A stretch of DNA of 64,000 nt from Candidatus Bathyarchaeota archaeon (GCA_963832745.1 CAWHVC010000001.1:128001-192000); one strand, 5' to 3'. Positions 5,495 through 41,119 are shown, numbered from the stretch's first letter. Numbers and translations: made by a program. Notes: generated by a model from the sequence alone, not told the origin.

Positions 5495-5507
5495 AAAAAA
5501 TGAGTTT

Positions 5508-21726: not shown

Positions 21727-21803
21727 GCCGAGGTAGCTCAGCCTGGGAGAGCGCTCGGCTGAAGACCGAGTCGTCGCATGTTCAAACCCTGCCCTCGGCA
21801 CCA
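21727..21803 (+). tRNA. tRNA-Phe(GAA)
   Basis: GCCGAGG/CCTCGGC acceptor, CTCGG-CTGAAGA-CCGAG anticodon arm, encoded CCA; one T:C mismatch in the T-stem. Confidence 0.95.
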
Positions 21804-21949
21804 CACCATTAACTTGACATCTGTTAGCGACACTTTTTAATTGGCGTGGAACTGTTAGCAACATTTTATTTAGGTTTCCTAAACAACTTAACTTCCTTAT
21901 CTTTGCCATATTCACAGTGCAATTCAAAGCCCGTCTCGATTAGTTCCAA

Positions 21950-22254
21950 TGCTTCTTCAGAGGTTCTTGAATCTTACACGTGAAATTCTCGGGCGGTACA
22001 ACTGAGTTGGGAGTTGTGTCAACATCTAAAGAATTCTATGAAAAAACTCAGATAGCTTATGTTTTATTTCTAAAATTTCTGGCGAAACCAGACTTCGGTC
22101 TCTTAGGGATTACACGGGCGCGCTTAAACAAGCCGGTTGGAACGTTAACCGTGTTGAGCGACCTACTTTCGACCTTGTAAACGTTGAGGTATCCAACGAT
22201 CCATGGCTAATAAATACTGCAACTATAATTGCGAATCTAAACATTCGGTCTTAA
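21950..22254 (+). pseudogene. Gene remnant, possibly the C-terminus of a SAM methyltransferase
   Basis: Broken frames give ..SGETRLRSLRDYTGALKQAGWNVNRVE..TIIA..*; no start codon. Family assignment is tentative. Confidence 0.3.
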
Positions 22255-22335
22255 TTGTTCGCCCTTTTCTAAAGGGTGTTATCGCTCTTTTTCTCTTTTT
22301 GTGTTTTTTGTTACGGAGTACGTAAACTTTAATTA

Positions 22336-22357
22336 GTTAGCTTATCTAACAGTTAGA
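22336..22357. promoter_or_regulatory. Palindromic operator upstream of the MarR gene
   Basis: GTTAG-N5-CTAAC overlapping TCTAAC-A-GTTAGA, 12 nt before the start codon. Confidence 0.55.
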
Positions 22358-22369
22358 AAGTGAAATTAA

Positions 22370-22822
22370 TTGTCTGCTGAAGAATGTGCCCATGAATTAC
22401 TTGAAACTGTCCCTTTAGTTATGAGGGATATACGCACACAAATGCGTAATCGAAGAAGCACCGACCTCACTGTCCCCCAATACCGTACCTTAGCTTTCAT
22501 ACACCGAAATGAAGGTGCCTCACTTACCAAAGTAGCAGACCACCTAGGTCTCAAGTTGCCAACTATGTCCAAGATGGTAGATTCCCTTTTCAACAAGGGA
22601 TTATTGCAACGCGAGGAGCAGTCCACAGATAGGCGTCGCGTGAAGTTGGTCGCTACGGCGCAGGGCGTAAAAATAATGGAGGCTTCTAGACAGGGAACTC
22701 TGAAGCATCTTTCCATGCAACTGGAACCAGTAAAGGTCGCAGATAAACAGGTCATTGTTGAAGCGATGAAAATATTGCGTTTAGTCTTCAAAGAAGCAAA
22801 TAAAACATTAGACGTGAAATAA
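22370..22822 (+). CDS. MarR family transcriptional regulator
   Basis: LTVPQYRTL, wHTH, DRRRVKLVATAQG. Confidence 0.92.
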   Translation: MSAEECAHELLETVPLVMRDIRTQMRNRRSTDLTVPQYRTLAFIHRNEGASLTKVADHLGLKLPTMSKMVDSLFNKGLLQREEQSTDRRRVKLVATAQGVKIMEASRQGTLKHLSMQLEPVKVADKQVIVEAMKILRLVFKEANKTLDVK

Positions 22823-22906
22823 CCATGCTACTTCTAAAGGCTGTATATTTTCCCTACCGCTCAAGTTATTCTGAATCTGTAACCAAAAATTGAAGGAGTA
22901 AATTCT

Positions 22907-23906
22907 ATGGGTCTCGCTATTGATATTCAAAATCTTGCCAAAACTTATGCTGGAGGGTTTAGAGCGCTTGATGGCGTCAACTTAAAAGTTGAAGCTGGCA
23001 AAGTTTTTGCTCTTCTGGGTCCTAACGGTGCTGGAAAAACCACTCTAATGAGGATTTTGACAACTCAACTTAAACCAACTGAAGGCTCGGCCAGCGTCTT
23101 TGGGTTAGATGTCGATAAAGAGGATGCAAAGGTTAGACGGCTTATCGGTTATGTTCCGCAAGAGATGAGTGTTTGGACCGATATAAGTGGTTACGAAAAT
23201 TTGCTTATTTACGCTAAACTGTATGGTGTTCCATCTTCAAAAAGAAAAGAAATAATTGAAGATGCCTTAAGAAAAATGGGTTTAACTCCAGTTAAAGATC
23301 GACTTCTTAAGACGTACTCAGGTGGTATGATTCGTAGGCTTGAGATTGCTTGTGTTTTGTGGGTTAAACCTAAAATTCTTCATAGTTGACGAACCCACTA
23401 TCGGTTTAGACCCCTCCGCTCGGAAAGTAGTGTGGTCTGAACTTACATCCTTTAAACGTGAATGTGGTGTAACCGTTTTCTTTAATACACATTACATGGA
23501 TGAAGCTGACCTGTATTCAGACGGAATCGCTATAATTAACAATGGTAAAATCGTAAAAGTAAGCACTGCTGATGAACTCAAGCGTTCAGTTGGAAGAGAC
23601 ATTCTATCATTAGCCATAGATAGTGATCAATTAAGCAAGGCTTGCCTGAAAAAAGTAAAGCACATAAATCTGGTTGATGATGTTGTCCAAAACGATTCAG
23701 AATTAAGGATAACAACTAAAGATGCCGAGACCATCTTGCCTGACATCATCGAAACTTTAAGATTTGAACGTGTCTCTATCCATAAAGTTTCTATGACAAG
23801 GCCAACCTTGGATGATGTTTTTCTAAAATATGCCGGGCTTAGGCTCGATTCTACTGGTAGAATCAGCGAGGTTAGACAAGTACGCGATATGATTCGGAGA
23901 GGTTAA
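22907..23906 (+). CDS. ABC-2 exporter ATP-binding protein (DrrA-like), one frameshift
   Basis: GPNGAGKTT, YSGGMIRRLEIA, DEPTIGLDP; frame change near 23380. Confidence 0.9.
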
Positions 23907-23935
23907 CCATACAACTGCCTACTTTTGTTAGAAAC

Positions 23936-24679
23936 GTGTTCGTTATGATGGAGCTTGAATTAAGACGCATAAGACACGACAGAATGGAGCTCTATACCCG
24001 TGCAATCCAACCGGTCCTGTGGCTTGTTGTTTTTGCTCCAATAATGAGTGGTATCAAAGCTATACCTACAGGTAACATTCCCTATGTTGACTACGTTGTG
24101 CCAGGCGTTTTGATACAGTCTACAACGATGGTTGCCATATTCTTCGGTTTAACGCTAATTTTCGAGCGTGAATCAGGCATACTCAAAAAACTCCTAGTTA
24201 CTCCAACTTCCAGATACACAATTGTTATAGGCCGATCGATGTCCGCAGGTGTCAGAGCATTGTTTCAAATTCTGATAATTATTCCCTTCGCATTATTGAT
24301 AGGTGTAAGCTTCTTACCAAACCCTTTGAATTTCTTATTGGCAATTCTTATACTGTTTTTTGCCGCTGGCGGTTTCGCGGCGCTTTCGATTTTTATCGCT
24401 TCATTCTTGAAGGCGCGTGAGCGGTTTCAAGCCATAGGTCAAGCTATAACTTTTCCGTTGTTCTTTGCAAGTAATTCGCTATACCCAATTAGTTTGATGC
24501 CGCCTATTTTACAGGAGTTTTCACGCTACAACCCAATGACATACATAGTTGACGCTGTTAGAGGCTTGCTTATAAGCGGCGATTTGTCAAATTTGCCTAT
24601 TGATTTGCTGGGTACATCAGTGTTTGTTGGTTTAATGTTCTTTTTAGCTTCTGTGAGTTTTAAGAGAATAATCCAATAA
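23936..24679 (+). CDS. ABC-2 type permease (DrrB-like)
   Basis: ERESGILKKLLVTP and NPMTYIVDAVRGLL motifs, six TM segments. Confidence 0.9.
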   Translation: MFVMMELELRRIRHDRMELYTRAIQPVLWLVVFAPIMSGIKAIPTGNIPYVDYVVPGVLIQSTTMVAIFFGLTLIFERESGILKKLLVTPTSRYTIVIGRSMSAGVRALFQILIIIPFALLIGVSFLPNPLNFLLAILILFFAAGGFAALSIFIASFLKARERFQAIGQAITFPLFFASNSLYPISLMPPILQEFSRYNPMTYIVDAVRGLLISGDLSNLPIDLLGTSVFVGLMFFLASVSFKRIIQ

Positions 24680-24697
24680 AACTATTTTTTTATGCTT

Positions 24698-25577
24698 TTA
24701 AAAAAATAATTGGGCATTTTGCCGTTTGTTCACCAGTAACGCTTGTTTAGCTTTGTCTTTGTTTGTCGTCATGGAAACCGTCATTTTATGTACTATTTTG
24801 TTGTCTATGGTTTGTCCGTAAATGAGCCTTAAAACATTAGTGCGACTCAGCAAAATTTTTGGTTCCAGCACCATAACCTACTTTCAATGGAACAATGGCT
24901 GGGTAAAAAAGACAAACATCATCTATCAAGTTAGTTAAAATGGATACGCCTGTGGGTGTTGCAAGTTCTGCTTCTATTGGTCCACCGTGAAATGGGAACT
25001 GGTTTGTTTGAAGTATGGCTAATGTTGCAGGGGCTGGACTTGGTATAGTGCCGTGTGAAATTTTGAAGATTCCTCCACCTACCGCGATAGGTGTAGAATA
25101 TATTTTTGTGTCAAACAAGCCTAAATCGTCTATTGCTACTGTGGTTCCAATTATTTCAGCGGCTGTGTCTACTAGTGAGACCTCATCCAGAACGCCATCG
25201 TAAAACTTTGTTTTATGCAGTTTTTCTTCGGTATTGACCAGTGTTAGAATTGTTTTGGAAGCAAATTCTTTAGCTTTTGTAGACAGTTGAAGTTTGCTTG
25301 TGACATCATCCACGATTTCGATAAGCTCTTTGCTTAATTTCCTATCCGGTGTTTCTGAGGTTACATCAATGTTAGTTGATTTAAACTCGCTACGCATTAC
25401 CTGCTTGATCTGAATTTTAATGTTTTTGTACCCATAAATAGGGTTGTCCAAATTTTTTATTGCATCCACAATCTTGTCAACGTTAGCTCCCAAGTCAATT
25501 AATGCTCCAAGAACCATATCGCCTGCTATGCCGGAAGCTTGACAATCTATGATAAGTACCTTATTCTTTTCAATCAT
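24698..25577 (-). CDS. larC: LarC-family nickel insertion protein, N-terminal domain only, frameshift near the C-terminus
   Basis: IDCQASGIAGDMVLGALIDLG, HG.IPSPAPAT, ELATPTG, GYGAGTK; NVLRL continues in another frame to TAA at 24698. Confidence 0.8.
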
Positions 25578-25724
25578 AAAAATCACCAAAACCCAGTTTC
25601 CATAAAGGAAACAAGCAATAGAATGGTGGTATTGCCATGTTTTAAACTGACTGAACATTTAAACCTGTGGTTATGGTCGCAATACTACGGAAAATGCACC
25701 GTTTTCTTCCTTTGCTCGATAGGC

Positions 25725-25987
25725 TTATTCTTTAGTAACAATTTTATGTGCATTTAAACAATGGCCTCTCACAGCAGCACATTTTTTGGTCCTGTGTTCT
25801 CTTGTTGCTGCCCATTTTAGAATTGGAATTATTGCTTGTCTGAGTTCAATTCCTTCCTGGCTTAAGGAGTACTCTACTCTTGGTGGTATTTCTGCGAAGG
25901 CTTCTCTGTTAACCAGTGATTCTTCCTGTAGCTTTTTGAGTGTATCGGCCAATGTTTTAGGGCTGATTCCAGCTAATTCTTTCAGAA
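25725..25987 (-). pseudogene. HxlR-family regulator, 5'-truncated
   Basis: LLKELAGISPKTLADTLKKL...IPPRVEYSLS.EG present; the N-terminal third is missing. Confidence 0.8.
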
Positions 25988-26680
25988 GGATACCGCATCT
26001 TAGTCGTAGACACTGACGAATCAAACTACGGTCTCAGCGCACAACTAGGATTAAACGATCCCAAAGAACTCATGGACCAAATCGGCGGAAAAAAGGTAGT
26101 GATGAACAAAATGATGGCTGCCCGTTCATGTGGAGAAAAAGCGCAAATCTTCAACGAAGACTGGAGCATCGACGCTATACCTTCTGATTGTGTTTCAAAA
26201 AAAGGCAACTTGAACCTGCTTAAGATTGGTAAAGTGAAGCATTTTGGCGAAGGTTGCGCTTGCCCTATGGGTGGGCTTTCAAGAGAATTTCTGATGCATC
26301 TGTTGTTGGCTCCAAAAGACATTGCAATTATTGATACAGAAGCTGGCGTGGAGCATCTGGGCAGAAGCATAGCTGGCCATGTTGACATTATTTTAGCCGT
26401 GATAGACCCATCTTATGAATCAGTGAAGTTGTCCAAAAAAATTGTTGAAATGGCCAAAGAAGGCGCTAAAACAGTTTATTTTGTAATCAACAAGACTGAC
26501 GATAAAATCGCTGAAAGCATAGCGGCCCAAATCGGCAAAGAACAAGTGATCAGTATTGTACCTTTCAACTCACGCATACAAAAGAAAGGCCTAACAGGCA
26601 ACGTTCTCGATTTCGAGTTAGACTCAATATCTACTATTTCACAATTTGTAATTCAAAACTTCCAAAACAAAGCCAAATAA
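25988..26680 (+). pseudogene. CooC/AcsF-like nickel insertion ATPase, 5'-truncated (no Walker A)
   Basis: Frame from 25988 reads GYRILVVDTDESNYGL..., then GEGCACP, DTEAGVEHLGR, VINK; the P-loop is absent. Confidence 0.8.
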
Positions 26681-26694
26681 TAAAGGTGTAACAA

Positions 26695-27945
26695 ATGAAT
26701 AAAACTGCAATTTATGCAATAGTGTGTATCGTAATAATTGCTGCTGGTGCTGCAGTAGGTTATTCTTACCTATCAGCGCCATCCAATTCACCATCACCTT
26801 CAACGTCACCATCTGCTTCTTCAACAACCACACCTAGCGCCTCTACCTCTCCGACACAGACTCCCACAGCTACTGCTACGCCAGACGCTTCTACATCTCC
26901 AACCGCAACCCCCACTCCAACAACAACACCAATGCCACCAACACAACAAATAACAGACATGGTAGGTCGAACAGTTACGGTTTCTAACAATATTACACGT
27001 GTTATCGGTGTAAACTACGGTTGCATGAGATTATTGACCTATATGGATGCTAGTTCTCTTATTTGCGGTGTTGAACAAACAGAATTAACTGCCGGTGCGC
27101 GTCCTTACGCTCTTGCACATCCTGAATACGCAGAACTACCAGTTATAGGTCCACAATTCGGTGGAGACCCAGAATTAATAGCTGCACAAGAACCCGATGT
27201 AGTGTTTGTTACTGATTTTTCAAAAACAGACCTCGACTCATTACAAAGCCAACTTGGCATTCCTGTTATAGGTATCACATACAGCAATAATTTGGATACA
27301 CAAGAAAATCGCCAAATTCTATACGATAGTTTAAATCTTATTGGTAAAGTGCTGCATAAGGAAGACCGTGCTACCGATGTTAAGAACTACATAGATGGAG
27401 TTGTCGCTGACCTTAATGCCCGAACAAGTAGTATACCTGACGCTGATAAACCGACCGTTTACATTGCTGGTCTTTCTTCTCGTGGTGCTCATGGATTCAC
27501 CTCAACAAGCGCTGCATATTCCCCCTTCACTCTGACAAATTCAAAAAATGTGGTAACTCTCGAAATGACAAGTGGCTCTGATTCAGTGGTAAGCCTTGAC
27601 CTTGAAGCACTGCCTAGTCTTAACCCACAAGTAATCTTTGTAGACTACTCTGGCTTGACACTAATTAGACAAGACGTTCAAGACCACGCAGATGTGTTCA
27701 ATCAGCTTGATGCCATCAGCAATGGAAAAACTTACGGTGTATTAAGTTACAACTATTATGCAAACAATTTCGGCGTAGCTTTATCTGACGCATACTATGT
27801 TGGTTCAGTCCTTTATCCGTCACAATTTAGCGACATCGACCCCGTTCAAAAAGCCAACGAAATCTACACTTTCCTATGTGGTGCACCAGTCTATGACGAA
27901 ATGGTTGCACTGTATGGTCCTTTCGGACAAGTATCTCTAACGTAA
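26695..27945 (+). CDS. Metal-chelate/cobalamin ABC substrate-binding protein (BtuF/FecB-like) with S/T/P linker
   Basis: N-terminal TM, SPT-rich linker, ITDMVGRTVTV, DPELIAAQEPDVVF. Confidence 0.88.
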   Translation: MNKTAIYAIVCIVIIAAGAAVGYSYLSAPSNSPSPSTSPSASSTTTPSASTSPTQTPTATATPDASTSPTATPTPTTTPMPPTQQITDMVGRTVTVSNNITRVIGVNYGCMRLLTYMDASSLICGVEQTELTAGARPYALAHPEYAELPVIGPQFGGDPELIAAQEPDVVFVTDFSKTDLDSLQSQLGIPVIGITYSNNLDTQENRQILYDSLNLIGKVLHKEDRATDVKNYIDGVVADLNARTSSIPDADKPTVYIAGLSSRGAHGFTSTSAAYSPFTLTNSKNVVTLEMTSGSDSVVSLDLEALPSLNPQVIFVDYSGLTLIRQDVQDHADVFNQLDAISNGKTYGVLSYNYYANNFGVALSDAYYVGSVLYPSQFSDIDPVQKANEIYTFLCGAPVYDEMVALYGPFGQVSLT

Positions 27946-28067
27946 ACAGGTTAAGAAATTGACCATACAACTTTTCCTTTTTTCTTTCTATTTAAAGCGA
28001 TAAAAAGTGCTTGGTTCTGAAAACACCGAGCAGAGTGTCTATCAAGAAACTTGGAGGCTAAAAATAA

Positions 28068-29138
28068 ATGAAAAACGCAAAAAACTTACTATTTTCCTTT
28101 ACTCCTAACTCTAAAGAGTACTCTTCTTTACTTAACTGTTCAATTGAAGGTTTGAAACGGTTTAACCTAATCATAACTGCTTATGATGCTGGACTGTTTG
28201 AGTTAACAACTACCCCTAAAACATCTCAAGCATTAGCAAAAGACCTTGGCAGCAGCCATGAAGTAATGGTTCAATTATTCTGTGACGCCTTAGTTGAAAT
28301 AGGTTTAATGACGAAATCAAATGGGGCATATGTTAATTCTCCGTTAACTGCAACCTACCTCTGCAAGGATTCTCCTCATTATATGCGGCATTCGTTGCAC
28401 AACATGAAATTAAACGCTGGCCGCTGGGCATTGTTGTCATCCATTCTTAAAAATGGTCCAATAATGCAAGAAAGAGATGATTTCTTTGGTTCAAACTGGC
28501 TTTACAGCATCGCCGAAGGAGCTGAAGCTGGCTCAGTAGCCAATACCTTAAATGTTGTAACTGCACATGTTGACCCAAAACGTTGGCTCAGGCTACTTGA
28601 TCTTGGGGGTGGTCATGGTCTTTATGCCATAGGATTTACTGCACTTAATCCTAAATTGGAAGCGTATGTTTTTGATCTTCCAAAAGCAGTTCCAATAGCC
28701 AAAGAATACATCAATGCTTACAATGCAAATAACGTGCATGTTATAACTGGAGACTTTAACAAAGACAATATAGGCCAAGGGTACGACGCGGTGTTTTCTT
28801 CTTTTAACCAAAGTTGTTTTGACCCTACTTTCATACCGAAAATAGTGCAATCTTTAGCACCTAACGGCGACGTTATTCTTAGACGATTTAAAGATTCAAC
28901 AAGAACTGGCGCTTTGGCCACTTTAGATTGGAACCTGCATGGTTTTGAAGGCAAAAAAATCGGCAGCAAACCTCATTCATCCGACAGCACAGTAGATCGA
29001 GAAACTTACCTTAAACACTTAGCGGCTTCAGGCCTCAAAGTGTTAGGCACTTTTACAGTCGACGAAATATCTGAAATAACATTTGCTCAAAAACCTAAAA
29101 TCGAGGAAGATTCAACAAAATGCAACGCAACAAGCTAA
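28068..29138 (+). CDS. SAM-dependent O-methyltransferase (dimerisation plus Methyltransf_2 type)
   Basis: LLDLGGGHG, VFDLP and GDF motifs; N-terminal wHTH-like region. Confidence 0.88.
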   Translation: MKNAKNLLFSFTPNSKEYSSLLNCSIEGLKRFNLIITAYDAGLFELTTTPKTSQALAKDLGSSHEVMVQLFCDALVEIGLMTKSNGAYVNSPLTATYLCKDSPHYMRHSLHNMKLNAGRWALLSSILKNGPIMQERDDFFGSNWLYSIAEGAEAGSVANTLNVVTAHVDPKRWLRLLDLGGGHGLYAIGFTALNPKLEAYVFDLPKAVPIAKEYINAYNANNVHVITGDFNKDNIGQGYDAVFSSFNQSCFDPTFIPKIVQSLAPNGDVILRRFKDSTRTGALATLDWNLHGFEGKKIGSKPHSSDSTVDRETYLKHLAASGLKVLGTFTVDEISEITFAQKPKIEEDSTKCNATS

Positions 29139-30205
29139 AAAACAAAGACAAGCAAGAACAAAACCAACAAGAAGAGACTTCAGGCTACACTAAGTACGTT
29201 GGTAGAAAAGTATTATTCATAACCCTTTGCTTAGTGGCTTTAGTTATAGTTACTATGGTGGCTTTATGCATTGGCTCGGCAGGTCTTTCACTCTCTGAAG
29301 TTATGGATCAAATCATAAACCAAAGTGGTATAGCTTGGAGTATCCGCTTGCCAAGAGTCTTAGTGGCTGTTGTTGCAGGTGCAATGCTTGCCGTTGCAGG
29401 CTCAGTAATGCAGTGCCTTCTAAAGAACCCCTTATGTGAACCTTACACTTTGGGCTTAAGTCAGGCAGCAGCTTTCGGTGCGTCCTTTGCAATATTGTTT
29501 CTGGGTGCTGGCGCTTTACACAGCAGTTCTAAAGATGCTGTTATAATAAGCAATCAGTACTCTGTAACAATCTGTGCATTCTGTTTTTGTATGGTATCAA
29601 CACTTGTAGTTTTAGCTCTTACACGACTAACTAAAGTTTCACCTGAAGCAATAGTTTTATCAGGAATTGTTTTAGGCTCCATATTTGGTGCTGGCCTTAC
29701 TGCAATACAATACTTTGCAAGCGATGTTCAAATTGCATCTATTGTTCATTGGACATTTGGTGACCTAAGCAGAATAACTTGGGATAACCTGCTTTTGGTT
29801 GGGGCACTTTCTGTACCAATACTACTCTATTTTATGTATAACCGCTGGAACTATAATGCAATTGACGCTGGAATTGACACTGCAAACAGTTTAGGCGTAA
29901 ACGTTGACAGACACGTCTTAGTTGGCATGGTTCTATCTAGTGTTGTCGCTGCAGTAATCGTTTCTTTAATGGGCATAATCGGTTTCGTAGGTTTACTTGC
30001 TCCACACATGGTTCGGCGAGTAATAGGTTCAGACAATCGTTTCGTTATACCGGCTGCGGCTGTAGTTGGTGCCTTAATACTTCTGGTATCTGACACTTTA
30101 GCAAGAAACATAATTTCCCCCCTAGTGCTTCCGGTAGGTGTTATAACCGCTTTTCTCGGTGGCCCCTTGTTCCTGTACATACTAATTAGGAGGTACAGAA
30201 AGTAA
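29120..30205 (+). CDS. FecCD/BtuC family ABC permease
   Basis: IRLPRVL, KNPLCEPYTLG, GIIGFVGLLAPH, LPVGVITAFLGGP. Confidence 0.93.
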   Translation: MQRNKLKNKDKQEQNQQEETSGYTKYVGRKVLFITLCLVALVIVTMVALCIGSAGLSLSEVMDQIINQSGIAWSIRLPRVLVAVVAGAMLAVAGSVMQCLLKNPLCEPYTLGLSQAAAFGASFAILFLGAGALHSSSKDAVIISNQYSVTICAFCFCMVSTLVVLALTRLTKVSPEAIVLSGIVLGSIFGAGLTAIQYFASDVQIASIVHWTFGDLSRITWDNLLLVGALSVPILLYFMYNRWNYNAIDAGIDTANSLGVNVDRHVLVGMVLSSVVAAVIVSLMGIIGFVGLLAPHMVRRVIGSDNRFVIPAAAVVGALILLVSDTLARNIISPLVLPVGVITAFLGGPLFLYILIRRYRK

Positions 30206-30957: not shown

Positions 30958-31042
30958 GTCTAAATTGCACAAGACCAACGTAATGTTAACTTGCCAAACT
31001 TTTTCTTTTTTTGTTATGGAAAAAGAGTAAAAATTGAAAAAC

Positions 31043-31855: not shown

Positions 31856-31949
31856 CAGTATTACTTCCTTTAATAGCAGTAATACTTGTTTTGTATTTCA
31901 GACTTTCTCTTTGAGACGAGAACGCAACGCAACAACCATTCGTTTTATG

Positions 31950-32865
31950 CTATTCTCCTATATTCCAGTTGTTTGTTGCATATTTTATGTTGAACCTGTT
32001 TTGTGGTCGCTGATTAATTTTCTCAAGAGTCTGTTCAGATTACATATAGTCGGCTGCACCGATTTGTATGTGTGCGGTCAGATTGTACATATCAGTAGTG
32101 ATTTGCCAGATGTGCATATCAGTAATCTGCACGATTTCTGAGATATTCACCTGAAGATCTGGGTGATAAGGTTAATGTTGAGACCTTTAGGTGCGGTTTC
32201 TAGCAATATGTTTATTGATTCTTTAAATAAACCGTACGCCCAGACGAAAATTACGCTGGATATTCCCATACCCATCAGAGGATCGATAATGTACCAGTTG
32301 GTGAAAGAAACTATAATCGCGCCTACAATAATGGCCACAGATGAGGCGGTGTCGGCGAACATGTGAAGGAAGGCGCCCTTGACGTTGATGTTGTTTTTAG
32401 CACTGTTTCGAAGTAACAAAATACTTACGCCGTTGGCAGCTAACCCTGCAAGGGCAACCAATAGCATTTCAAATCCCAAAACAGGCTGAGGATTAAGCAA
32501 GCGTGTTATGCTTTCATATAATATGTAAGCTGTCACACCAAAAAGAAAGAGGCTGTTGAATAATGCTGCAAGAATTTCTGCCCGATAGAAACCATAAGTT
32601 CGATGATGACAAGGTGGTTTACAGCTGATAACCATAGCGACATAGCTGATGATTAAGGCAAAGAAGTGAGTAAACATGTGCCCTGTATCGCTGCCTAACG
32701 AGAGGCTTCCCGATAAAATGCTGCCGACAATTTCAAGCACCATAACAGAACTCGTAACAATCATTGAGAGAACCAAACGACTTCTAGCGACACCTCGGTA
32801 CTCATGCATCTCTGATAATGCATCATGCTCTTGTTGTGGTTCGTGTGCTCAACGCTAGACTGCAT
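31950..32865 (-). pseudogene. czcD: CDF cation efflux transporter (CzcD-like), disrupted
   Basis: SDTGHM, TYGFYRAEILAAL, AFLHMFAD. The C-terminal TDMHIWQIT..TAHI is in another frame, with an internal TAA near 32040. Confidence 0.8.
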
Positions 32866-33011
32866 AACAATATCCCACCCTGTGTTACTAATATCGCTAA
32901 TTGTCAAAAACCGGTTTATTCCTTGATTGATGCCGAACAAACGTTACTTAATGCTTTTATTTGTGGGTGGGTGGCTAACCTTAAGCATTAGACTCAACTT
33001 AGGTGAAAATA

Positions 33012-33590
33012 ATGGATTACCTTAACGACCGAGCAAAGTTCTTAATGTCTGATGAGCAAAAAAATGGCATGTTCCAGAAGTAATTCTTAATAACCTTAAA
33101 ATTACAAAGGGAATGGTTCTGGGCTGACTTAGGTTCTGGACCGGGCTTTTTTACTCTACTAATGGCTCAGATAACTGGAGAAACCGGTGCAGTATACGCT
33201 GTTGATAGCAATCAAGCAATGCTAAACAGTTTAAAAGAGAACATCGCCAAGTCGAGCATCGATAAAGGCATCATTAAAATCGTAAATAACGATGTCTGCC
33301 ATACAGGAATTACTGACAAATCAGTTGATGTTGTCTTTTTCGCAAATGTTCTCCATGAAGTAGATGACAAATTGGAGTTCTTCCAAAAGATCAAACGTAT
33401 ATCTAAACCAACTGCTATCATTGTTGATATAGCCTGGAAGAAGATTCAAACAGAACGTGGACCGCCCCTGAAAGAACGACTTTCTGAAGAAGAAGCTAAA
33501 CAAGTACTATCTGAAAATGATTTTAAAGTGATAAATCAGACTGATGTAGGACCTTATCATTACGAAGTTATTTGTCGGATAGTTGCTTAA
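33012..33590 (+). CDS. Class I SAM-dependent methyltransferase, frameshifted near the 5' end
   Basis: GGTGA SD plus ATG at 33012; ..KGMVL/ADLGSGPGFF joined across two indels; VDVVFFANVLHE. Confidence 0.75.
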
Positions 33591-34188
33591 TATAGTTACA
33601 GTTAAGCCCTTTCATTTTTGTATTTGCTTTTTCCTATGTTCTACAATTTTTAAAAAATTGGTTGAAGTTGGTGCTTTAGTATGAAAGTTTTGCAAGAAGC
33701 ACCTCTGAAAGAAAGCGCTACATCCCTTAGAATTAGGTTATGGCATTTCTAAAAGATGTATCATTTGATGTTGAAATCTCAAATTGTTCTAGAAAAATAT
33801 CCTTGGCTGCATTTCGTGCTTTCAAAAATTGTGGTCGACATTTTCCAGTTTCGATGGATGTTTATTCGTTGTTGCAGACTTTTTTTGTATGGGAGCTGAC
33901 TTATTTTTAACCTCAAGTTGGTTGTATATATGTAGGTTTTTTCGGTTCTGTAAACTCTTTGAGGGGTAGCTCTCCATGTAAAGTTTCGAGGGATGTCGAG
34001 CCACGCATCTGAGTTCTGAACGAAAAAAGTATGTAGAGCAGCCGATAACATTTCTGTCGCAAATATTAACAGTTAAGATGAAATTCCTTAGAATCAGGTT
34101 ATGGTCTAAAGAATGATCCTGTGTTTTAAAAATTTGGTCTACAAGAATGGCAACATATTGTTAATGTTCTTGAAGAAAATGATCTGTG

Positions 34189-34270
34189 GCCAAGTGAAAC
34201 CCGGTTAGTTTTTCTAACCGCCTTTGAAGGGTTTCGATTGTTTACAGCCAATCGAAAGGTTTAGCTTGGT
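34189..34270. other. Compact four-way-junction inverted-repeat structure
   Basis: 13-bp outer stem with one mismatch, enclosing 7-bp, 3-4-bp and 9-bp hairpins with almost no linker bases. Confidence 0.55.
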
Positions 34271-34458
34271 GTATGACTAGGGCGGGGTTGTATGCACAGG
34301 ATGGTAAAATTTTTTCCCCAGTCGGTATTACGAATTTATAAAAAGGTGTTACTGTATATAAGTTTATTGACACCGAACGGCAAATTTGTTGCATCTAATG
34401 GGCGAATCTGCTCAAAAAAGAGAGAAAAATTGAGGCTAATATCACCCCTTGTCTTGGT

Positions 34459-34481
34459 TTCAAACCCTGCCCTTGGCACCA
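34459..34481 (+). repeat. Internal copy of the tRNA-Phe 3' end (att-like)
   Basis: TTCAAACCCTGCCCTTGGCACCA, 22/23 identical to 21781-21803. Confidence 0.9.
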
Positions 34482-34531
34482 TCTTATTTATCATCGGCGT
34501 AAGACACGACTTTTAGGAGCAATTCAGTTTC

Positions 34532-36295
34532 TTATTGCGCATTTGAGATTGTTTTAGGACCTTTAAAACGCCATAAAAGAATAGTGCCAACTACTACTAT
34601 AATTACGCTTGTAACAGAGGCAATAGGTATCAATGGGGAACTTGTGGGAACTTGCTCTTCCTCAGATGGTAGTTGCGTGTCTTCAGGTGGTGATAATTGC
34701 TGATTTGCTATTGTACCCTGCCATTTTTCAAGAGTGACTTGTATTTTATTTATGTCACATGGTTGAGTAAGCGGATAATTGTCTGTAAAGTTTTCGTAGA
34801 CGCTGTATGGGGTTTCGCCGATGCCATCGCCGTTTGTGTCACTGCCCATGTAGTTGCTCCAGTAATTGCCTTCTTTACCATTATCCCATTTATTGTATTC
34901 AGAATAATACGAGAAGTTTGTAAAGGTCATCCAATAGGTTTCATGAGCTTCATTTACTTTTGTGTTATCTTTAAAATTGTTCCATACAAAATTGTTAAAA
35001 TCAGAACTGACGAGACTAACAGCATTTTCACTTGTTCCCTGAATGTTGTTTCCTAAAACATGATTATTCAGTGCACTAGTCAAATAAATGCTAATCCTGC
35101 CCTGCTCAAGATTGATGTTATTTTGGAAGAAAGCATTATACTCACCACTTAATTGAAGACCGATTTCTTCAGCTGTTAGGTCGTTTTCATAAACATAATT
35201 TCTGCTCCCACTTAACGTTATACCTGCACAGTTATCGAAACCAGAATTTGAACTGGATGATATATTGTTTTTTTCTATCCAGTTATATGAACCATCAATA
35301 ATAAGGCCACAACAATTTATTCCTACTATAGAATTTTGTGTTACCGTGTTATTATACGAATTTGATATTGTCACTGCAGCAGACTGCCAAGTGCCCCCTT
35401 CTTTTGAAAACTCGTTATCAATTAGAATGTTATTGTGCGAGTTTGCTATGGTTAAAGGTCCTTTACAATGAGTAACCAAGGAGTTGTTTACTCCAAAAAA
35501 CGTTAAAGGCTTGTTTAAACCTGAAACATCAACATCTTGAACCACCATACCCGTACAGTTGACAAGAGTCACCTGACCCGCATTATCTATAACTTGATTT
35601 GATTGCCCCTCAAGAAATACTAATGGCTTACCATTAATCGTGTTACCTGAAATCACATTTGAATCCTTAAATTCCCAGTAAATAAGACTGCAATCTATGA
35701 ACTTGTTATCGATAAAAGTGGTTTCATCAGTTCGAAACTCGACACCGTTACCATTACCTGCATTAAACGTGTTGCCTGAAACAAAATTTTTAACTCCACG
35801 AAGTGCAATAGACCAATATCTGGTTTCAAAATAGTTATCAATAACTGTATTACGCGAAGAAACTACAACATTATCTGAATCAGTCATGAAATCGTCATAA
35901 ATTTCAACGCCTGTTCCAAAATTGACTATCTGAGTGTTCTTAATAGTAACGTCACTTTTTCCATAAATCCCTATAGCTATACCACTGTTTGTTCCTCGAA
36001 TGGTTTTCCCTGCACCATCAAAAACTATGCCATCACATTCTATGTTAATAAAAACAGAGCCCATAGCAACATCACCACTTATATCCTCTGTAAGGGTGTA
36101 AACATTCCCATTTTGGCGAATTTTATCAGTCCCAGTAACAGCACCGGATGGCGTTATTTTTATAATACCTTTAGAAGGTGTAGCAGCACTAAAAGACCCT
36201 AACGTACACACCAAAGACAACGAAAGCAAAAATATTAACATAAGGCTTAAAAATAAATTTTTAAAAATTAGATGGGATTTATTTTTAATAGGCAT
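34532..36295 (-). CDS. Surface protein with right-handed parallel beta-helix (NosD/CASH) repeats
   Basis: Signal peptide, Asn-rich repeats, WDNGKEGNYWSNY.G.D.NGDGIGETPY motif, C-terminal TM. Confidence 0.88.
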   Translation of the reverse strand: MPIKNKSHLIFKNLFLSLMLIFLLSLSLVCTLGSFSAATPSKGIIKITPSGAVTGTDKIRQNGNVYTLTEDISGDVAMGSVFINIECDGIVFDGAGKTIRGTNSGIAIGIYGKSDVTIKNTQIVNFGTGVEIYDDFMTDSDNVVVSSRNTVIDNYFETRYWSIALRGVKNFVSGNTFNAGNGNGVEFRTDETTFIDNKFIDCSLIYWEFKDSNVISGNTINGKPLVFLEGQSNQVIDNAGQVTLVNCTGMVVQDVDVSGLNKPLTFFGVNNSLVTHCKGPLTIANSHNNILIDNEFSKEGGTWQSAAVTISNSYNNTVTQNSIVGINCCGLIIDGSYNWIEKNNISSSSNSGFDNCAGITLSGSRNYVYENDLTAEEIGLQLSGEYNAFFQNNINLEQGRISIYLTSALNNHVLGNNIQGTSENAVSLVSSDFNNFVWNNFKDNTKVNEAHETYWMTFTNFSYYSEYNKWDNGKEGNYWSNYMGSDTNGDGIGETPYSVYENFTDNYPLTQPCDINKIQVTLEKWQGTIANQQLSPPEDTQLPSEEEQVPTSSPLIPIASVTSVIIVVVGTILLWRFKGPKTISNAQ

Positions 36296-36451
36296 AAGTC
36301 TTCAAAAGCATTTTCAAGTACACAACTATTAATTATTTTTCGTCAAGAAACCTTGACTAAACTTTTCTGGAATCAATACATTGCAAGAATAAATGAATTC
36401 TACTATAAAGAGAAAAGGGAAAATTCCGGGTGATATCATTTTTTGCTTGGT

Positions 36452-36473
36452 TTCAACCCCTTCCTTGGCAGCA
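36452..36473 (+). repeat. Degenerate copy of the tRNA-Phe 3' end (att-like)
   Basis: TTCAACCCCTTCCTTGGCAGCA, about 19/23 to the 34459 copy, with shared flanks (ATATCA..CTTGGT upstream, TCYTATT downstream). Confidence 0.7.
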
Positions 36474-36637
36474 TCCTATTAATTTAACACTTTTATTTAG
36501 GCTTCCTAAACAGCTTAGTCTTTCTTGTATTAACCAAAATCAACTAGAGGACAAATATCTGCTCCGTCTTGATTGCTACTGACATTTGTTATTTACTTTA
36601 AGCAATAACAAATTTTTAAAACCCCGTTTAAACCAAA

Positions 36638-39040
36638 GTGATTGGTGATTTTTTGTCTCAGACTAACCTTGATCCCAAGACTGCATCAGAAGAGGCCAGT
36701 CAGCAACGTTCGGTTCTTCCAATTCCTAACAAACCTTACAAGGGATTAATTGTTTACGACGCAAAAAGCACCGACTCAAAGTTTCCACCCATAGAACCAA
36801 TCCGACCACCAAAAAAAGCAGCAAATATTGTTTTAATATTGCTTGACGACGTCGGTTTTGGCGCCTCCAGCACTTTTGGTGGACCAATCAATACACCAGT
36901 TGCAGATGCATTAGCTACGGATGGCCTAAGATATACTAGGTTTCATACAACTGCTTTATGTTCGCCAACACGTGCGGCTATTTTGACGGGACGTAATCAT
37001 CACACGGTTGGAATGGGTGGGATAACAGAAATCGCCACGTCAGCACCAGGCTATAACTCTATAAGACCCAACTATTGTGCACCTATATCAAAAATTCTAA
37101 AATATAACGGTTATTCAACCGCACATTTCGGAAAATGCCACGAAGTTCCTGTTTGGGAAACCGGTCCAATTGGACCATTTGACCATTGGCCAACCTTTTC
37201 AGGTTTTGAAAAGTTCTACGGGTTTGTAGCGGGAGAAACTAATCAGTGGTTCCCTGAAGTTTACGATGGCAGGTCAAGAGTGATGCTACCAGATGACCCT
37301 AACTACCATTTTATGGTGGACATGACTGACCAAGCCATTAATTGGATACGCACCCAAAAAGCAATAGCACCTGATAAGCCGTTTTTTGTTTATTTTGCTC
37401 CGGGAGCTACGCATGCGCCTCATCACGTTCCTAAAGAGTGGGTAGACAAATACAAAGGCAAATTTGATGACGGCTGGGATAAACTTAGAGAACGTACTTT
37501 TGAGAAACAAAAACAGCTTGGAGTCATTTCTAACGACGCAAAACTAACTAAACGGCATAAAGAAATTCCTGCATGGGCTGAAATGCCGGAGGAACTTAAA
37601 CCAGTACTTAGGCATGAAATGGAAGTTTACGCTGGCTTTCTCGAATTCACGGATTATCATATTGGAAGACTACTTGACTCCTTAAAGGATCTTGGAATTT
37701 TTGATGAAACACTGGTTTTCTACATAATCGGTGATAATGGGGCTTCAGCTGAGGGCACATTGAACGGCACTTTTAACGAAATGACCAATTTTAACGGCGC
37801 AGCATCACTTGAAACACCACAGTACCTTATGCAACATCTTGACGAATTTGGAGGACCAACATCATACAATCATTATGCGGTAGGCTGGGCGCATGCAATG
37901 TGCTGTCCTTATCAATGGACAAAACAGGTTGCGTCCCACTTCGGTGGCACAAGAAACGGCATGATTATACATTGGCCTAAAGGAATCAAAGCCAAAGGTG
38001 AACTGCGTCACCAATTCCATCATGTTATTGACGTTGCTCCAACTATTCTTGAAATTGCCGGAATTCCTGAACCGGAGTTTGTGGAAGGTGTAGAGCAGAA
38101 ACTGATGGAAGGTACCAGTATGACATATACCTTTGAAGATAAGGCAGCCCCTGACCGTCATGATGTACAGTATTTTGAAATGTTTGGCAACCGTGGAATC
38201 TACTATAAAGGTTGGACAGCAGTAACTAAGCATCGCACACCATGGCAACTTGTAGGTCAGAAAACGGTGGCTTTTAATGATGACAATTGGGAACTTTACG
38301 ATACCACAAAAGATTGGACTCAAGCTGAAGACCTGTCAAAGCAAAAGCCTGAGTTACTTCATGAATTGCAGCGTCAATGGTTGATTGAAGCAACACGCTA
38401 TAATGTTTTACCGTTGGATGACCGTGGAATAGAACGTTTTAACCCTAAATTGTCAGGTAGGCCTGAAATGGTAACTGGCAATACCCAATTCTTGTATCCG
38501 GGAATGGTTCTAAACGAAAGCGGAGTTATTGACATAAAAAACAAGTCACACTCTATTATTGCTGAAATAAACGTACCTGATTCAGGAGCCAGAGGCGTTG
38601 TTGTAGCTCAAGGCGCTAATTTCGGAGGCTGGGCACTATACTTCAAAGATGAACATCTCAAGTACTGTTACAACTTTTTAGGATTAACCCTCTACACTGT
38701 TGAAGCCCCAGACGTTATGCCACAAGGAAAGCATCAGGTTCGAATGGATTTCAATTATGATGGCGGCGGCTTAGGAAAAGGCGGTACAGCATCACTAATT
38801 GTTGATAACAAGAATGTAGCACAAGGCAAACTGGAACACACTGCACCAGTCATCTTTTCGGCTGACTCTACCTGCATGGTTGGCGACAAAATTGGGGCAC
38901 CAATCTCAAACGACTTCAAAAACGTCGATAACAAGTTTAATGGAAAAATCAGTTGGGTACGTATAGAGAAAGGAATTGAAGAAACCGAACGCCAGATTAG
39001 CCCTGAAGAATGGGTCAGAGTTCACATGTCCATACAATAA
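36638..39040 (+). CDS. Arylsulfatase (Cys-type formylglycine sulfatase) with C-terminal beta-sandwich domain
   Basis: LLDDVG, CSPTRAAILTG (CxPxR), FGKCH, GDNG; no signal peptide. Confidence 0.93.
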   Translation: MIGDFLSQTNLDPKTASEEASQQRSVLPIPNKPYKGLIVYDAKSTDSKFPPIEPIRPPKKAANIVLILLDDVGFGASSTFGGPINTPVADALATDGLRYTRFHTTALCSPTRAAILTGRNHHTVGMGGITEIATSAPGYNSIRPNYCAPISKILKYNGYSTAHFGKCHEVPVWETGPIGPFDHWPTFSGFEKFYGFVAGETNQWFPEVYDGRSRVMLPDDPNYHFMVDMTDQAINWIRTQKAIAPDKPFFVYFAPGATHAPHHVPKEWVDKYKGKFDDGWDKLRERTFEKQKQLGVISNDAKLTKRHKEIPAWAEMPEELKPVLRHEMEVYAGFLEFTDYHIGRLLDSLKDLGIFDETLVFYIIGDNGASAEGTLNGTFNEMTNFNGAASLETPQYLMQHLDEFGGPTSYNHYAVGWAHAMCCPYQWTKQVASHFGGTRNGMIIHWPKGIKAKGELRHQFHHVIDVAPTILEIAGIPEPEFVEGVEQKLMEGTSMTYTFEDKAAPDRHDVQYFEMFGNRGIYYKGWTAVTKHRTPWQLVGQKTVAFNDDNWELYDTTKDWTQAEDLSKQKPELLHELQRQWLIEATRYNVLPLDDRGIERFNPKLSGRPEMVTGNTQFLYPGMVLNESGVIDIKNKSHSIIAEINVPDSGARGVVVAQGANFGGWALYFKDEHLKYCYNFLGLTLYTVEAPDVMPQGKHQVRMDFNYDGGGLGKGGTASLIVDNKNVAQGKLEHTAPVIFSADSTCMVGDKIGAPISNDFKNVDNKFNGKISWVRIEKGIEETERQISPEEWVRVHMSIQ

Positions 39041-39129
39041 AAGGCGTCTTTGCCCAAACTCTTTCTTTTTTTATTCAAGTAATTTATCAAAACAAAGGAG
39101 CGTAAAACGTAATTCAAACGTTTCATGTA

Positions 39130-40284
39130 ATGGCAAAGCCTACTGGTTCAAGATGTAACCTTAACTGTGATTACTGTTTTTTCCTAAAAAAGAAGTATCT
39201 TTACCCCAACAGCAATTTCAGAATGTCTGACAAAGTAATGGAGCGTTACATTAGCCAAACCATTTTAGCCCATAAAGTTCCAGTAGTGACGATTGCCTGG
39301 CAGGGTGGAGAGCCAACTTTAATGGGTTTGGATTTTTATCGACATACTATAGAAATAACAAAAACCGTTACCCCTCAATACATGAAAGTAGAAAATACTT
39401 TACAAACAAATGGTGTCTTGATTGACGAAGAATGGTGCCGTTTTCTTCACGATAACAATTTCTTAGTTGGTTTAAGTATTGATGGACCAAAATTTCTTCA
39501 TGACAGTTACCGAAAAGATAAAGCTGGGCATTCAGTTTTTGATAAAGTCATCCAATCTGCCCGGTTAATGCAGAAACATGGCGTAGAATTTAACATTTTA
39601 TGTACGGTAAATGCCGTAAATAGTAGGTACCCTTTAGAAGTGTACCGTTTCTTTCGTAACGAATTAAAAACACCTTATTTGCAATTCATTCCAATTGTGG
39701 AGCGAGATAATGAAACAGGAAATCAACAGGGAACTTGCATCACAGAACGATCAGTAAACCCAAAACAATACGGTAAATTCTTGATAGAAATATTCGACGA
39801 ATGGGTGCGCCATGATGTAGGCAAAATGTTTGTTCAATTTTTTGACGCGGTCTTAGCTTCGTATGTTAGAGGTTACTCTTCTCTTTGCATTTTAAGCCCC
39901 AAGTGCGGGGAAGGTGTTGCGCTTGAACATAATGGCGATGTCTATTCATGTGACCATTTTGTAGAGCCTAATTTCTTCTTAGGCAACATTTTAAAAACCC
40001 CTATAGTAGACCTTGTTTCGAGTAAACAACAGCAGCTTTTTGGAGAGGCAAAACAAAAAACGCTTCCTCGTTATTGTAGAGAGTGCGAGTTTTTGTTTAC
40101 TTGTTATGGTGAATGCCCAAAAAACCGTGTTTTAAGAGCGCCTGACGGGGAAGAAGGTTTGAATTGGCTGTGTGAAGGGTTGAAAAACTTCTTTAGCCAT
40201 ACCAAAATCCCTATGCAAATAATGGCTTATTTTTTACGTAATAACGAACCGGCTTCAAATATAATGAATATCTTTTCGAATTAA
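39130..40284 (+). CDS. Anaerobic sulfatase-maturating enzyme (radical SAM/SPASM)
   Basis: CNLNCDYC, WQGGEPTL, GDVYSCDH, CRECEFLFTCYGECPKNR; adjacent to the sulfatase. Confidence 0.93.
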   Translation: MAKPTGSRCNLNCDYCFFLKKKYLYPNSNFRMSDKVMERYISQTILAHKVPVVTIAWQGGEPTLMGLDFYRHTIEITKTVTPQYMKVENTLQTNGVLIDEEWCRFLHDNNFLVGLSIDGPKFLHDSYRKDKAGHSVFDKVIQSARLMQKHGVEFNILCTVNAVNSRYPLEVYRFFRNELKTPYLQFIPIVERDNETGNQQGTCITERSVNPKQYGKFLIEIFDEWVRHDVGKMFVQFFDAVLASYVRGYSSLCILSPKCGEGVALEHNGDVYSCDHFVEPNFFLGNILKTPIVDLVSSKQQQLFGEAKQKTLPRYCRECEFLFTCYGECPKNRVLRAPDGEEGLNWLCEGLKNFFSHTKIPMQIMAYFLRNNEPASNIMNIFSN

Positions 40285-40689
40285 CTGTTGTTTTTTGTTG
40301 TACTAAGTTTATCAGCTAGTTGGTACGATTAATTTGTTCAACTATTCTTTCATAAAAGTTAGAGGGGGACGTCACCAAAACCCTGCCCTCGGCACCACAC
40401 CATTAATTTGACGTCGGTTAGCGACATTTTACTTGATTGTTATTTACAAAACCTTTTAAAAATAAACTTGGATGGGGCAGCATTAACATTTCTCTTAAAT
40501 ATTAACAGTTAATGTGATTGGCCGTTTGTAGCTAAGTTGTAACAACCTAAAACAGCAAAACTCTATATCAAAAAAGGCTTTTCTTTTTTTAAAAGGAATA
40601 TGATTTTGAAAAAATTAAAAAAGCAATAAATGCAAAAGATTCTCGATAATCCTAACGCGTTAAGAGAGCACAGGTTAAAACCGCCACTT

Positions 40690-41060
40690 TCCAAATCCAC
40701 CAATTCCTATCTTCAACATTCACCACAACATTTGCCATAAAAACAAACCACAACCCAAACAAAACAGTCACTCCCAACATGCCCCTCATCCTCACCCCAT
40801 CCCACACAACATAGCGCCACGTAACAGACAAGGCAAAAAACAACTCCCTCATCCACAACGCAACCCAAAAATCGCCCAAACCAAAAAAACAAGCCGCCAC
40901 CCAAACCCAAAACTGGGACGAGGCACCACCAAAAAACCCATCCTCACAAAAAACAAAAAAAACCACCAAACATCCAACATAACGCCAGAAACAGTAAATA
41001 CACACAAGCCACGCAACAATCTAACTCCAAATACACACAAAAAAAGAAAGAAAAAAGAAG
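40690..41060. repeat. Low-complexity C/A-rich tract
   Basis: Almost only C and A on the + strand; overlapping ORFs are compositional by-products. Confidence 0.6.
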
Positions 41061-41119
41061 TTCAAGGGTAAAGTTACCTTTATTACCTTAAATTATCTAA
41101 CGCTATTTGAGGACTAATT

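Follow-up and report, generated by a model that had tools for sequence, protein, structure and literature searches.

In streptococci, integrative and conjugative elements (ICEs), integrative mobilizable elements (IMEs) and cis-mobilizable elements (CIMEs) are described as passing from integration through decay to an att-flanked unit without an integrase, at whose resident att site a newcomer can then accrete (PMC5704250). Elements separated by partial tRNAs are reported from the tycheposon arrays of Prochlorococcus genomic islands, where fragmented integrases mark older events (bioRxiv 10.1101/2020.12.28.424599). For archaeal elements, the accounts include non-partitioning integrases that act at tRNA 3' ends, elements integrated in tandem at a single locus, and integrase loss (PMC8371274, PMC6563490). 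Here we describe a locus in a Candidatus Bathyarchaeota archaeon, in which a tRNA-Phe gene is followed by blocks of cargo genes separated by copies of the tRNA 3' end. The window is a 64-kb stretch of this genome (64,000 nucleotides; GCA_963832745.1 CAWHVC010000001.1:128001-192000, or G000:C1:128001-192000; the genome has 3.02 Mb in 5 contigs), and positions are counted from its first letter. We consider it likely, with a probability of roughly three in four, that the interval from 21.8 to 41.1 kb is a CIME-like tandem accretion array of decayed integrative elements that belong to one family and share tRNA-Phe as their target. A sequence-only reading of the same DNA had proposed an array that is integrase-free by nature and works like an integron. 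Our comparison set consisted of 120 genomes of the same archaeal genus (Bathyarchaeia), with one genome per species.

The tRNA-Phe gene, the copies of its 3' end and the sequences that border them are listed by window coordinates, strand and identity.

21727-21803, plus strand: tRNA-Phe(GAA) gene, called by ARAGORN; its last 20-23 nucleotides (nt; 21781/21784-21803) are the recombination core, and it forms attL of the array.
21804-21865, plus strand: P' arm of element 1, the spacer from the CCA to the integrase stop codon, with 13-nt direct repeats at 21821-21833 and 21852-21864.
21866-21973, minus strand: integrase relic 1, consisting of a stop codon (21866-21868) and the last ~35 codons (21869-21973), with in-frame stops upstream.
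34415-34458, plus strand: P arm (right end) of element 1, from visual alignment and an nhmmer match at 34415-34455 (E-value 0.077, second-best in the window).
34459-34481, plus strand: copy 2, matching at 22/23 positions; attR of element 1 and left edge of the beta-helix cassette.
36452-36473, plus strand: copy 3, a decayed core with four substitutions and one deletion relative to the 23-nt core.
About 36493-36531, minus strand: putative integrase relic 2, a stop codon and about 8-12 codons with the C-terminal motif of the family, at the left end of element 3.
40375-40430, plus strand: copy 4 with a P' arm; the core (40378-40397) is followed by 33 nt of P' arm carrying one 13-nt repeat.

The four occurrences of the tRNA-Phe 3' end, all in direct orientation on the plus strand, had been recognized in the sequence-only reading, and they were confirmed by ARAGORN, by pattern and repeat searches, and by shuffled-sequence controls of copy significance. 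In a 24-nt search copy 2 was recovered at 34458-34481 with two mismatches, where 0.00 such matches are expected by chance (100 shuffles). Matches of the quality of copy 3 are expected 0.12 times per 19.3 kb (50 shuffles), and orthologous, better preserved copies are present in two relatives (G008 and G024). Copy 4 agrees with the tRNA-Phe 3' end at 20/23 positions (40375-40397). The outer pair (21784-21836 and 40378-40430) is 92% identical over 53 nt, or about 49/53, and the match runs 33 nt past the CCA; the figures given earlier, 46/49 and 29 nt beyond the CCA, were thus essentially right. No additional core was found inside module 1 (the cargo of element 1) or between 40430 and 41120, none in the rest of the 3.02-Mb genome at up to two or up to five mismatches, so that the genome-wide search suggested earlier returned nothing outside the array, and no terminal core, at up to seven edits, in the stretch that leads from copy 4 to the nitroreductase gene. 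Chance matches or local duplications were considered as a source of the copies, since copy 3 is weak when taken alone. However, the shuffled controls, the conserved arms beside the copies, the orthologous copies, and intact elements of the same architecture in relatives all speak against this explanation, which we find hardly credible.

The sequences beside the copies can be read as the two arms of an attP site. In intact elements of relatives the layout downstream of the tRNA is the same as here, with one or two short direct repeats between the CCA and the integrase stop codon, and the P' repeats are common to the flank of the tRNA and the flank of copy 4, which retains one of them. The other arm was sought with an nhmmer profile of the 60 nt upstream of the attR copies of 11 relatives, core excluded, whose best match in the window lies just upstream of copy 3 (36400-36438, E-value 0.0015). 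Read in this way, the junction series comprises the tRNA with a P' arm (attL, B plus P'), copy 2 with a P arm and core, copy 3 with P arm, core and P' arm (attP-like, between two elements), and copy 4 with core and P' arm. Copy 4 and its flank appear to be the left-end stub of a fourth element, the rest of which is deleted. The outer pair matches beyond the CCA because this flank is the P' arm of the element family and not chromosomal sequence. The shared flank upstream of copies 2 and 3, from which two classes of att site had been proposed, is real. However, this flank is the P arm, and what the tRNA has in common with copies 3 and 4 is the P' arm of the same family.

Two of the three modules hold remains of an integrase. 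We built a hidden Markov model (HMM) of the 70-residue integrase tail from 11 relatives and ran it on the 4262 six-frame fragments of the window; relic 1 was the top match (E-value 2.9e-7), and it ends in the terminal motif of the family. In the full-length HMM it aligns to positions 345-374 of 374, and the only other significant matches of that model in the window are two fragments of a frameshifted gene at 14895-15849. Relic 1 reaches 65% identity with two integrases that adjoin tRNA-Phe, a higher value than with any member of the clades at tRNA-Cys and tRNA-Leu, and it ends 63 nt past the CCA. The candidate relic 2 is assigned from its position and DNA identity rather than its score: 36491-36517 agrees with 21864-21890 at 25/27 nt and reads as the same last seven residues and stop codon. 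By frame translation, no integrase relic was recognizable after copy 4 or copy 2. A tblastn search of the window with six proteins from the elements of G115 and G061 for relics of Rep or other backbone genes returned one weak, off-target match in a methyltransferase gene. The statement that no recombinase lies in the 18.6 kb therefore holds for intact genes, as judged with Pfam, but not for relics. The array cannot be called integrase-free by nature, as modules 1 and 3 hold relics exactly where intact relatives hold the integrase gene, and the ordinary decayed tandem islands that the sequence-only reading had set against its own proposal are what we find. These two modules thus began as autonomous elements.

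Integrase loss has repeatedly spared only the last 7-35 codons beside the P' arm, in five cases that comprise both relics in the window and three in relatives (L006 in G013; L110:13563-13658 in G122; L112 near 2283 in G131). This recurrence may reflect a constraint on the stretch, such as the T-runs of the tRNA terminator or sites in the arm, or it may be chance.

Intact elements at tRNA-Phe are found in relatives. In G022, tRNA-Phe is followed by an 8.4-kb island that closes with a core copy, 1.1 kb short of the nitroreductase gene; its tyrosine integrase is encoded on the opposite strand, with the stop codon ~34 nt from the tRNA. With this integrase as the query, matches were obtained in 98 of the 120 genus genomes (E-value 1e-20). 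Of the best 30 loci, ARAGORN placed 11 at tRNA-Phe, 8 at tRNA-Cys and 4 at tRNA-Leu(TAG), and it detected no tRNA beside 7. In a maximum-likelihood tree of these 30 loci, 13 form one clade with support of 100/100, and the Cys and Leu groups are separate. All 13 members of this clade adjoin tRNA-Phe (11 by ARAGORN and two by the core pattern), and their integrase stop codons lie 34-82 nt from the core. The Leu-TAG clade consists of four relatives and a copy in this genome, and the Cys clade has eight members. Full-length members of the tRNA-Phe clade have about 375-400 amino acids (aa), with a zinc-ribbon-like N-terminal DUF7838, a catalytic domain, and a ~45-aa tail past the region of the catalytic tyrosine. 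Elements with both an integrase and attR span 3.3 kb (G115), 5.4 kb (G061), 8.4 kb (G022) and 31.6 kb (G131). Those of G115 and G061 also encode a Rep protein of the ORF2/G2P type near the far end, and G091 has a primase of the PriCT type.

The cognate integrase itself is absent from this genome, in which the best tblastn match to the tRNA-Phe clade, at 50% identity, is a Leu-clade sequence beside tRNA-Leu(TAG). As a consequence, the array is probably fixed in place until a helper arrives. The clade is likewise absent from G008 (best match 53% identical, at tRNA-Cys), and G024, a 93% complete genome, has no integrase match at an E-value of 1e-20. When an alignment of four tRNA-Phe-clade integrases was used to scan IMG/VR, none of the 280 pattern matches was confirmed, and a free attP form was not recovered.

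Three further observations concern tRNA genes and integrases outside the array. In this genome, G000:C5:80896-85296 holds a Rep gene that is 75% identical to that of the G115 element, 3 kb from an integrase pseudogene (84474-85124, four stops) that abuts a tRNA-like gene (85211-85296); it looks like a decayed small integrase-and-Rep element at another tRNA. At G000:C3:388584-404877, tRNA-Leu(GAG) (404743-404830, minus strand) has identical 23-nt ends at 392894 and 388584, the latter with a tRNA-like body upstream. An integrase frame (403843-404877, minus strand) is open through this tRNA and may be a self-partitioning integrase of the SSV type. Finally, in some species (L029 in G003 and L030 in G019; also L108 and L113) but not in this genome, tRNA-Phe carries an intron of ~31 nt after position 31, and ARAGORN misses such genes when run without its intron mode.

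According to the sequence-only reading, the cassettes might be mobilized by integrase genes 6-8 kb to the left of the array. Integrase-family sequence is indeed present there, at 14895-15849 on the plus strand, with a weak fragment at about 13999-14247 on the minus strand. However, the larger gene is frameshifted (near 15220-15311) and has lost about the first 72 positions of the HMM; its identity to the tRNA-Phe clade is 26%, and it falls in another clade. It also points toward tRNA-Val (18453-18530, minus strand), the divergent neighbour of tRNA-Phe, and clades within the family track their target tRNAs. We therefore regard mobilization from the left as very unlikely. The same divergent pair of tRNA-Val and tRNA-Phe, a few hundred bases apart, occurs in many relatives. 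The left integrase remains (13597-15852) sit to the left of a NERD-domain gene (15999-17444) and tRNA-Val, and they are probably part of a decayed island on the tRNA-Val side, although no copy of the tRNA-Val 3' end that could delimit this island was found in the window at up to five edits.

The units between the copies, and the sequence to the right of the last copy, are listed in the same manner as above.

21974-34414, no strand assigned: element 1 cargo, encoding MarR, an ABC exporter, a LarC-like protein, HxlR, an uptake operon (binding protein, O-methyltransferase, FecCD and ATPase), methyltransferases and a CDF exporter (Pfam).
34482-36451, minus strand: cassette with a beta-helix (NosD-like) surface-protein gene (34532-36295) and a P arm (about 36400-36451); no integrase and no relic.
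36638-40284, plus strand: element 3 cargo, a sulfatase gene (36638-39040) and a radical-SAM/SPASM maturase gene (39130-40284) (Pfam).
40431-41072, no strand assigned: genome-specific remnant with one 117-aa open reading frame (ORF) without a Pfam match; homology to G008 resumes at 41073.
41120-41674, plus strand: nitroreductase gene, a conserved chromosomal neighbour and the right edge of the hot spot.

These contents agree with the earlier description of an efflux and metal-uptake module, a beta-helix gene, and a sulfatase-maturase pair, which the Pfam matches uphold. The distance from tRNA-Phe to the nitroreductase gene is 0.26 kb in G014, 0.7 kb in G023, 1.0 kb in G005, 1.5 kb in G007 and ~5 kb in G001 and G002, compared with 19.3 kb here; the 18.6 kb is therefore inserted DNA, and the interval is an insertion hot spot. 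By base composition the modules are not distinguishable from their surroundings.

Whole units are gained and lost at the copies, as expected if these are att sites that bound discrete units. The closest relative compared, G008 (98% aa identity in two flank genes; right flank 78-85% identical in nucleotides), has the order tRNA-Phe, beta-helix gene, decayed core, P-type ATPase, core, two small ORFs and a sugar transporter, and nitroreductase. The sequence downstream of its tRNA is homologous to the region downstream of copy 2 in the window, from the core onward, so that element 1 (21804-34458, 12,655 bp) was inserted precisely at the junction of the tRNA with a cassette already present there. 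G068 has the tRNA, ATPase and core and continues as in G008, to which it is 91% identical over the ATPase unit and beyond, and lacks the beta-helix cassette. In G024 the order is tRNA, beta-helix gene, decayed core, unrelated DNA and PadR, and only the cassette is held in common with the array described here. Past the core at the right end of the beta-helix cassette, this genome, G008 and G024 have nothing in common. A metagenome contig (84% aa identity) also has the beta-helix gene directly after tRNA-Phe. Contigs from two public sequencing runs of different studies join 21809 to 34483, skipping 12,673 nt, and in one of them 5,646 other letters and then the nitroreductase gene follow, as in G008. 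Since these contigs are ~90% identical to the window, they derive from relatives and are not independent of G008. The strain itself is in none of the public runs, the best of which share 0.06-0.07 of the words sampled from the right flank. A joint of 36366 to 40376 in run X5, which we considered as a deletion of module 3, is rather a core copy after the beta-helix gene that resembles copy 4 more than copy 3.

The same comparisons bear on whether the 18.6 kb arrived as a single composite element, with the outer pair as its attL and attR and the inner copies as passengers from an older array of the donor. The outer pair is indeed the best matched, an integrase relic lies at the outer left end, and composite excision of accreted elements is described from bacteria (PMC5704250). 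However, the presence of the cassette at the true tRNA without module 1, in G008 and in the two run contigs, implies that module 1 was inserted beside a resident cassette. Relatives hold only subsets of the units, and P'-arm sequence in place of chromosomal flank to the right of copy 4 is unexpected at the attR of a composite. A single import is thus quite unlikely.

Two observations on neighbouring arrangements are added here. The homologue of window positions 3-8451 in G024 (L054:3466-11951) adjoins a purine-nucleoside-phosphorylase gene, which in the window lies at 45885-46685. The region of tRNA-Val and tRNA-Phe, with all that lies between, is inverted and much shorter in G024, and both tRNAs may be end points of rearrangements. 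In G012 (L041:6532-7362) the first gene downstream of tRNA-Phe encodes a heliorhodopsin.

The beta-helix cassette has spread between species in a form that lacks an integrase, and at least in this respect the idea of movement without an integrase of its own proved sound. The cassette (34459-36402) is 92.3% identical to that of G024 over 1946 nt, in contrast to flanks that are 73.0% (8.5 kb) and 72.8% (1.5 kb) identical; relative to G008 it is 88.0% identical, with flanks at 78-85%. The difference between 92% and 73% indicates that the cassette spread between species after integrase loss. The spacer from the core to the stop codon of the beta-helix gene is homologous in all four carriers (this genome, G008, G024 and the metagenome contig), from which it follows that the integrase-less form is older than the spread. 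The simplest route would be site-specific recombination by the integrase of a helper. By analogy with bacterial CIMEs, the cassette could have travelled with this helper, acting either in trans or, once the two had accreted, in cis. Members of the gene family are not bound to tRNA-Phe in general: a metagenome scan with the beta-helix protein returned seven loci, of which only the closest (84% aa identity) is at tRNA-Phe, and the other six (55-72% aa identity) have neither the core nor a tRNA in the sequence at hand.

Core copies without an adjoining integrase recur in the genus. In a census with the 20-nt core at up to two mismatches, at least two matches were obtained in 26 of the 120 genus genomes, counting this one; in G082 and G012 the additional match is a variant sequence, probably from a different tRNA, and some others may be duplicates at contig ends, as for G008. 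Among seven further genomes with two cores on one contig, the interval holds a full integrase in G131 and a 32-residue tail relic in G122. The integrase-free intervals carry one to a few genes, namely a P-type ATPase (G068, 2.8 kb), an MMPL transporter (G079, 3.7 kb), HicAB with a Schlafen-like protein (G051, 4.1 kb), or Kelch and PIN proteins; the interval in G134 measures 3.85 kb. Downstream of 50 distinct core copies, each with 300 nt or more of following sequence, we found a full or near-full integrase in 12 cases, a tail only in one (G013), and none in 37, in a sample that is biased because 13 of its loci were fetched by an integrase search.

These findings bear on an alternative in which the units, each with one to a few genes between P and P' arms, are non-autonomous by design and are still taken up, excised and exchanged at tRNA-Phe by integrases supplied in trans from small helpers encoding Rep and an integrase. 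Such a platform is consistent with the transfer of an integrase-less cassette between species whose flanks are 73% identical, with the retention of one junction in all four carriers, with the recurrence of single-cargo integrase-free intervals (G068, G079, G051 and G134), with the conserved P arms beside the copies, and with the helper-like integrase-and-Rep elements of 3.3-5.4 kb in relatives. However, modules 1 and 3 hold integrase relics, no cognate integrase is encoded in this genome and none was detected in G024 at an E-value of 1e-20, copy 3 is decayed, and several cargo genes are broken, including the ABC exporter ATPase with its frameshift. Taken together, the relics, the decayed copy, the broken cargo and the lack of a helper make it doubtful that the array is active today, to the extent that this can be judged from sequence comparison, and we regard the platform as rather unlikely. 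A related proposal is that tRNA-Phe serves as a cassette-exchange site in the genus, where units of one to a few genes, lacking an integrase and bounded by P arm, core and P' arm, would be stacked, lost and exchanged among species through small integrase-and-Rep helpers acting in trans or in cis. We put this forward tentatively, as a possibility with the odds somewhat against it. If true, adaptive genes for surface proteins, transport and sulfatases would circulate without a recombinase of their own, in an archaeal, tRNA-based counterpart of integron or CIME capture.

In the accretion model that we prefer, at least four elements of one family would have inserted successively into the 3' end of tRNA-Phe by site-specific recombination, each insertion restoring the tRNA and leaving a 20-23-nt copy of the core at the far end of the element. 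The enzyme of the family is a tyrosine integrase of ~380-400 aa, encoded on the opposite strand directly after the tRNA, with its stop codon 30-80 nt from the CCA. The integrase genes would then have been removed by deletion, such that element 1 keeps ~35 codons, element 3 about 8-12, element 4 only its P' arm, and the beta-helix cassette nothing. The result is a series of cargo blocks with att junctions at their edges.

Several observations weigh against this model. Under simple tRNA-proximal stacking, copy 4 is expected to be among the oldest, yet it is better preserved than copy 3. The P-arm profile gives no significant match upstream of copy 4 (E-value 2.4), and relic 2 is too short to be significant alone (tail HMM E-value 2.5, rank 5). 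Because the beta-helix cassette has no integrase relic, it may never have had an integrase. An integrase trace at an E-value of 1e-5 is also absent from five of the seven core intervals in the further genomes (G051, G068, G079, G098 and G134), a result that fits decay and equally fits natural non-autonomy. Lastly, homologous recombination, with the invariant tRNA and the short core as the points of exchange, may have transferred the cassette.

Further details of the cargo are as follows. The region 21992-30965 is collinear with a cluster in G005 at 74-77% nucleotide identity, and no att copies lie near the G005 cluster. The ABC exporter ATPase gene of module 1 (22907-23906) is split by a frameshift into two overlapping frames of 160 and 188 aa, while its G005 homologue is a single ORF (L055:7092-8090), and the LarC-like ORF (24837-25658) spans only positions 1-224 of the 375-position Pfam model; from these two cases, some of the cargo of module 1 is decaying. 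A [FeFe]-hydrogenase-like gene (L055:3375-5183) lies beside the module-1-like cluster in G005. The beta-helix protein has 587 aa, with an N-terminal signal-like segment and a C-terminal membrane segment (Pfam NosD/beta-helix). The sulfatase and maturase genes are apart in several relatives, and a sulfatase paralogue with 79% identity is found elsewhere in this genome.

Mobile elements of the Bathyarchaeia are almost undescribed. The publications on integrases, tRNAs or mobile elements in this group that were listed in one limited search are virus and provirus surveys (including PMC10848311), and no description of these elements was seen among them. The locus and its relatives define a tyrosine-integrase family with clades that track the Phe, Cys and Leu-TAG tRNAs, the attP arms of this family, and a hot spot for transport, surface and sulfatase genes. 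The spread of an integrase-less cassette across species makes helper-dependent gene capture in archaea testable in vitro. A caution also follows, in that arrays that seem integrase-free need to be checked for short relics, and relatives for cognate integrases, before a new mechanism is claimed.

Set beside known systems, the array has least in common with those that carry a dedicated platform. Like integrons, it consists of stacked gene cassettes separated by recombination sites at one place. However, no integrase adjoins it; the nearest is the frameshifted gene, which is 6 kb distant and separated from it by tRNA-Val and one more gene. In place of attC hairpins there are direct copies of a tRNA end with arms, as judged by sequence layout rather than folding; the genes are on both strands and have their own upstream regions, and two of the units are decayed autonomous elements. 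The analogy with an integron therefore fails for want of a platform integrase, attC-type sites and a uniform gene orientation. The self-partitioning integrases of the SSV type are described as sharing the tRNA target and the trapping of elements in the chromosome (PMC7253208). We considered partitioning of this type for the tRNA-Phe clade and rejected it, as the core lies outside the integrase ORF, past the stop codon, and integration does not split the gene. In comparison with the archaeal elements described in the accounts cited at the outset, the clades found here carry the N-terminal zinc-ribbon-like DUF7838 and the C-terminal tail of ~45 aa.

The closest counterparts are bacterial. In tycheposons, according to the source cited above, tyrosine recombinases likewise target tRNA genes, newer elements push older ones inward, and the cargo includes nutrient-uptake and similar genes. 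The hosts are bacterial in that case, our comparison is by architecture alone, and here one integrase-less cassette has spread between species. CIMEs and the tandemly accreted elements of the ICESt1/ICESt3 type in Streptococcus, as presented in PMC5704250, also sit at a target gene's 3' end. Decayed units there lack integration genes but retain attL and attR, newcomers that integrate at a resident att site build tandem arrays, and a decayed unit can travel with a helper. In contrast, the host described here is an archaeon, no conjugation genes were seen, the putative helpers in relatives are small elements with an integrase and Rep or an integrase and primase, and mobilization is deduced from comparing sequences. 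Three features of a CIME-type array are present: direct repeats derived from the target, autonomous relatives at the same site, and integration genes that are lost while the att sites and arms are kept. The pattern is already known from bacteria and other archaea, and since arrays formed by decay and accretion are known from CIMEs, tycheposons and archaeal elements, the array at tRNA-Phe is another case of a known kind.

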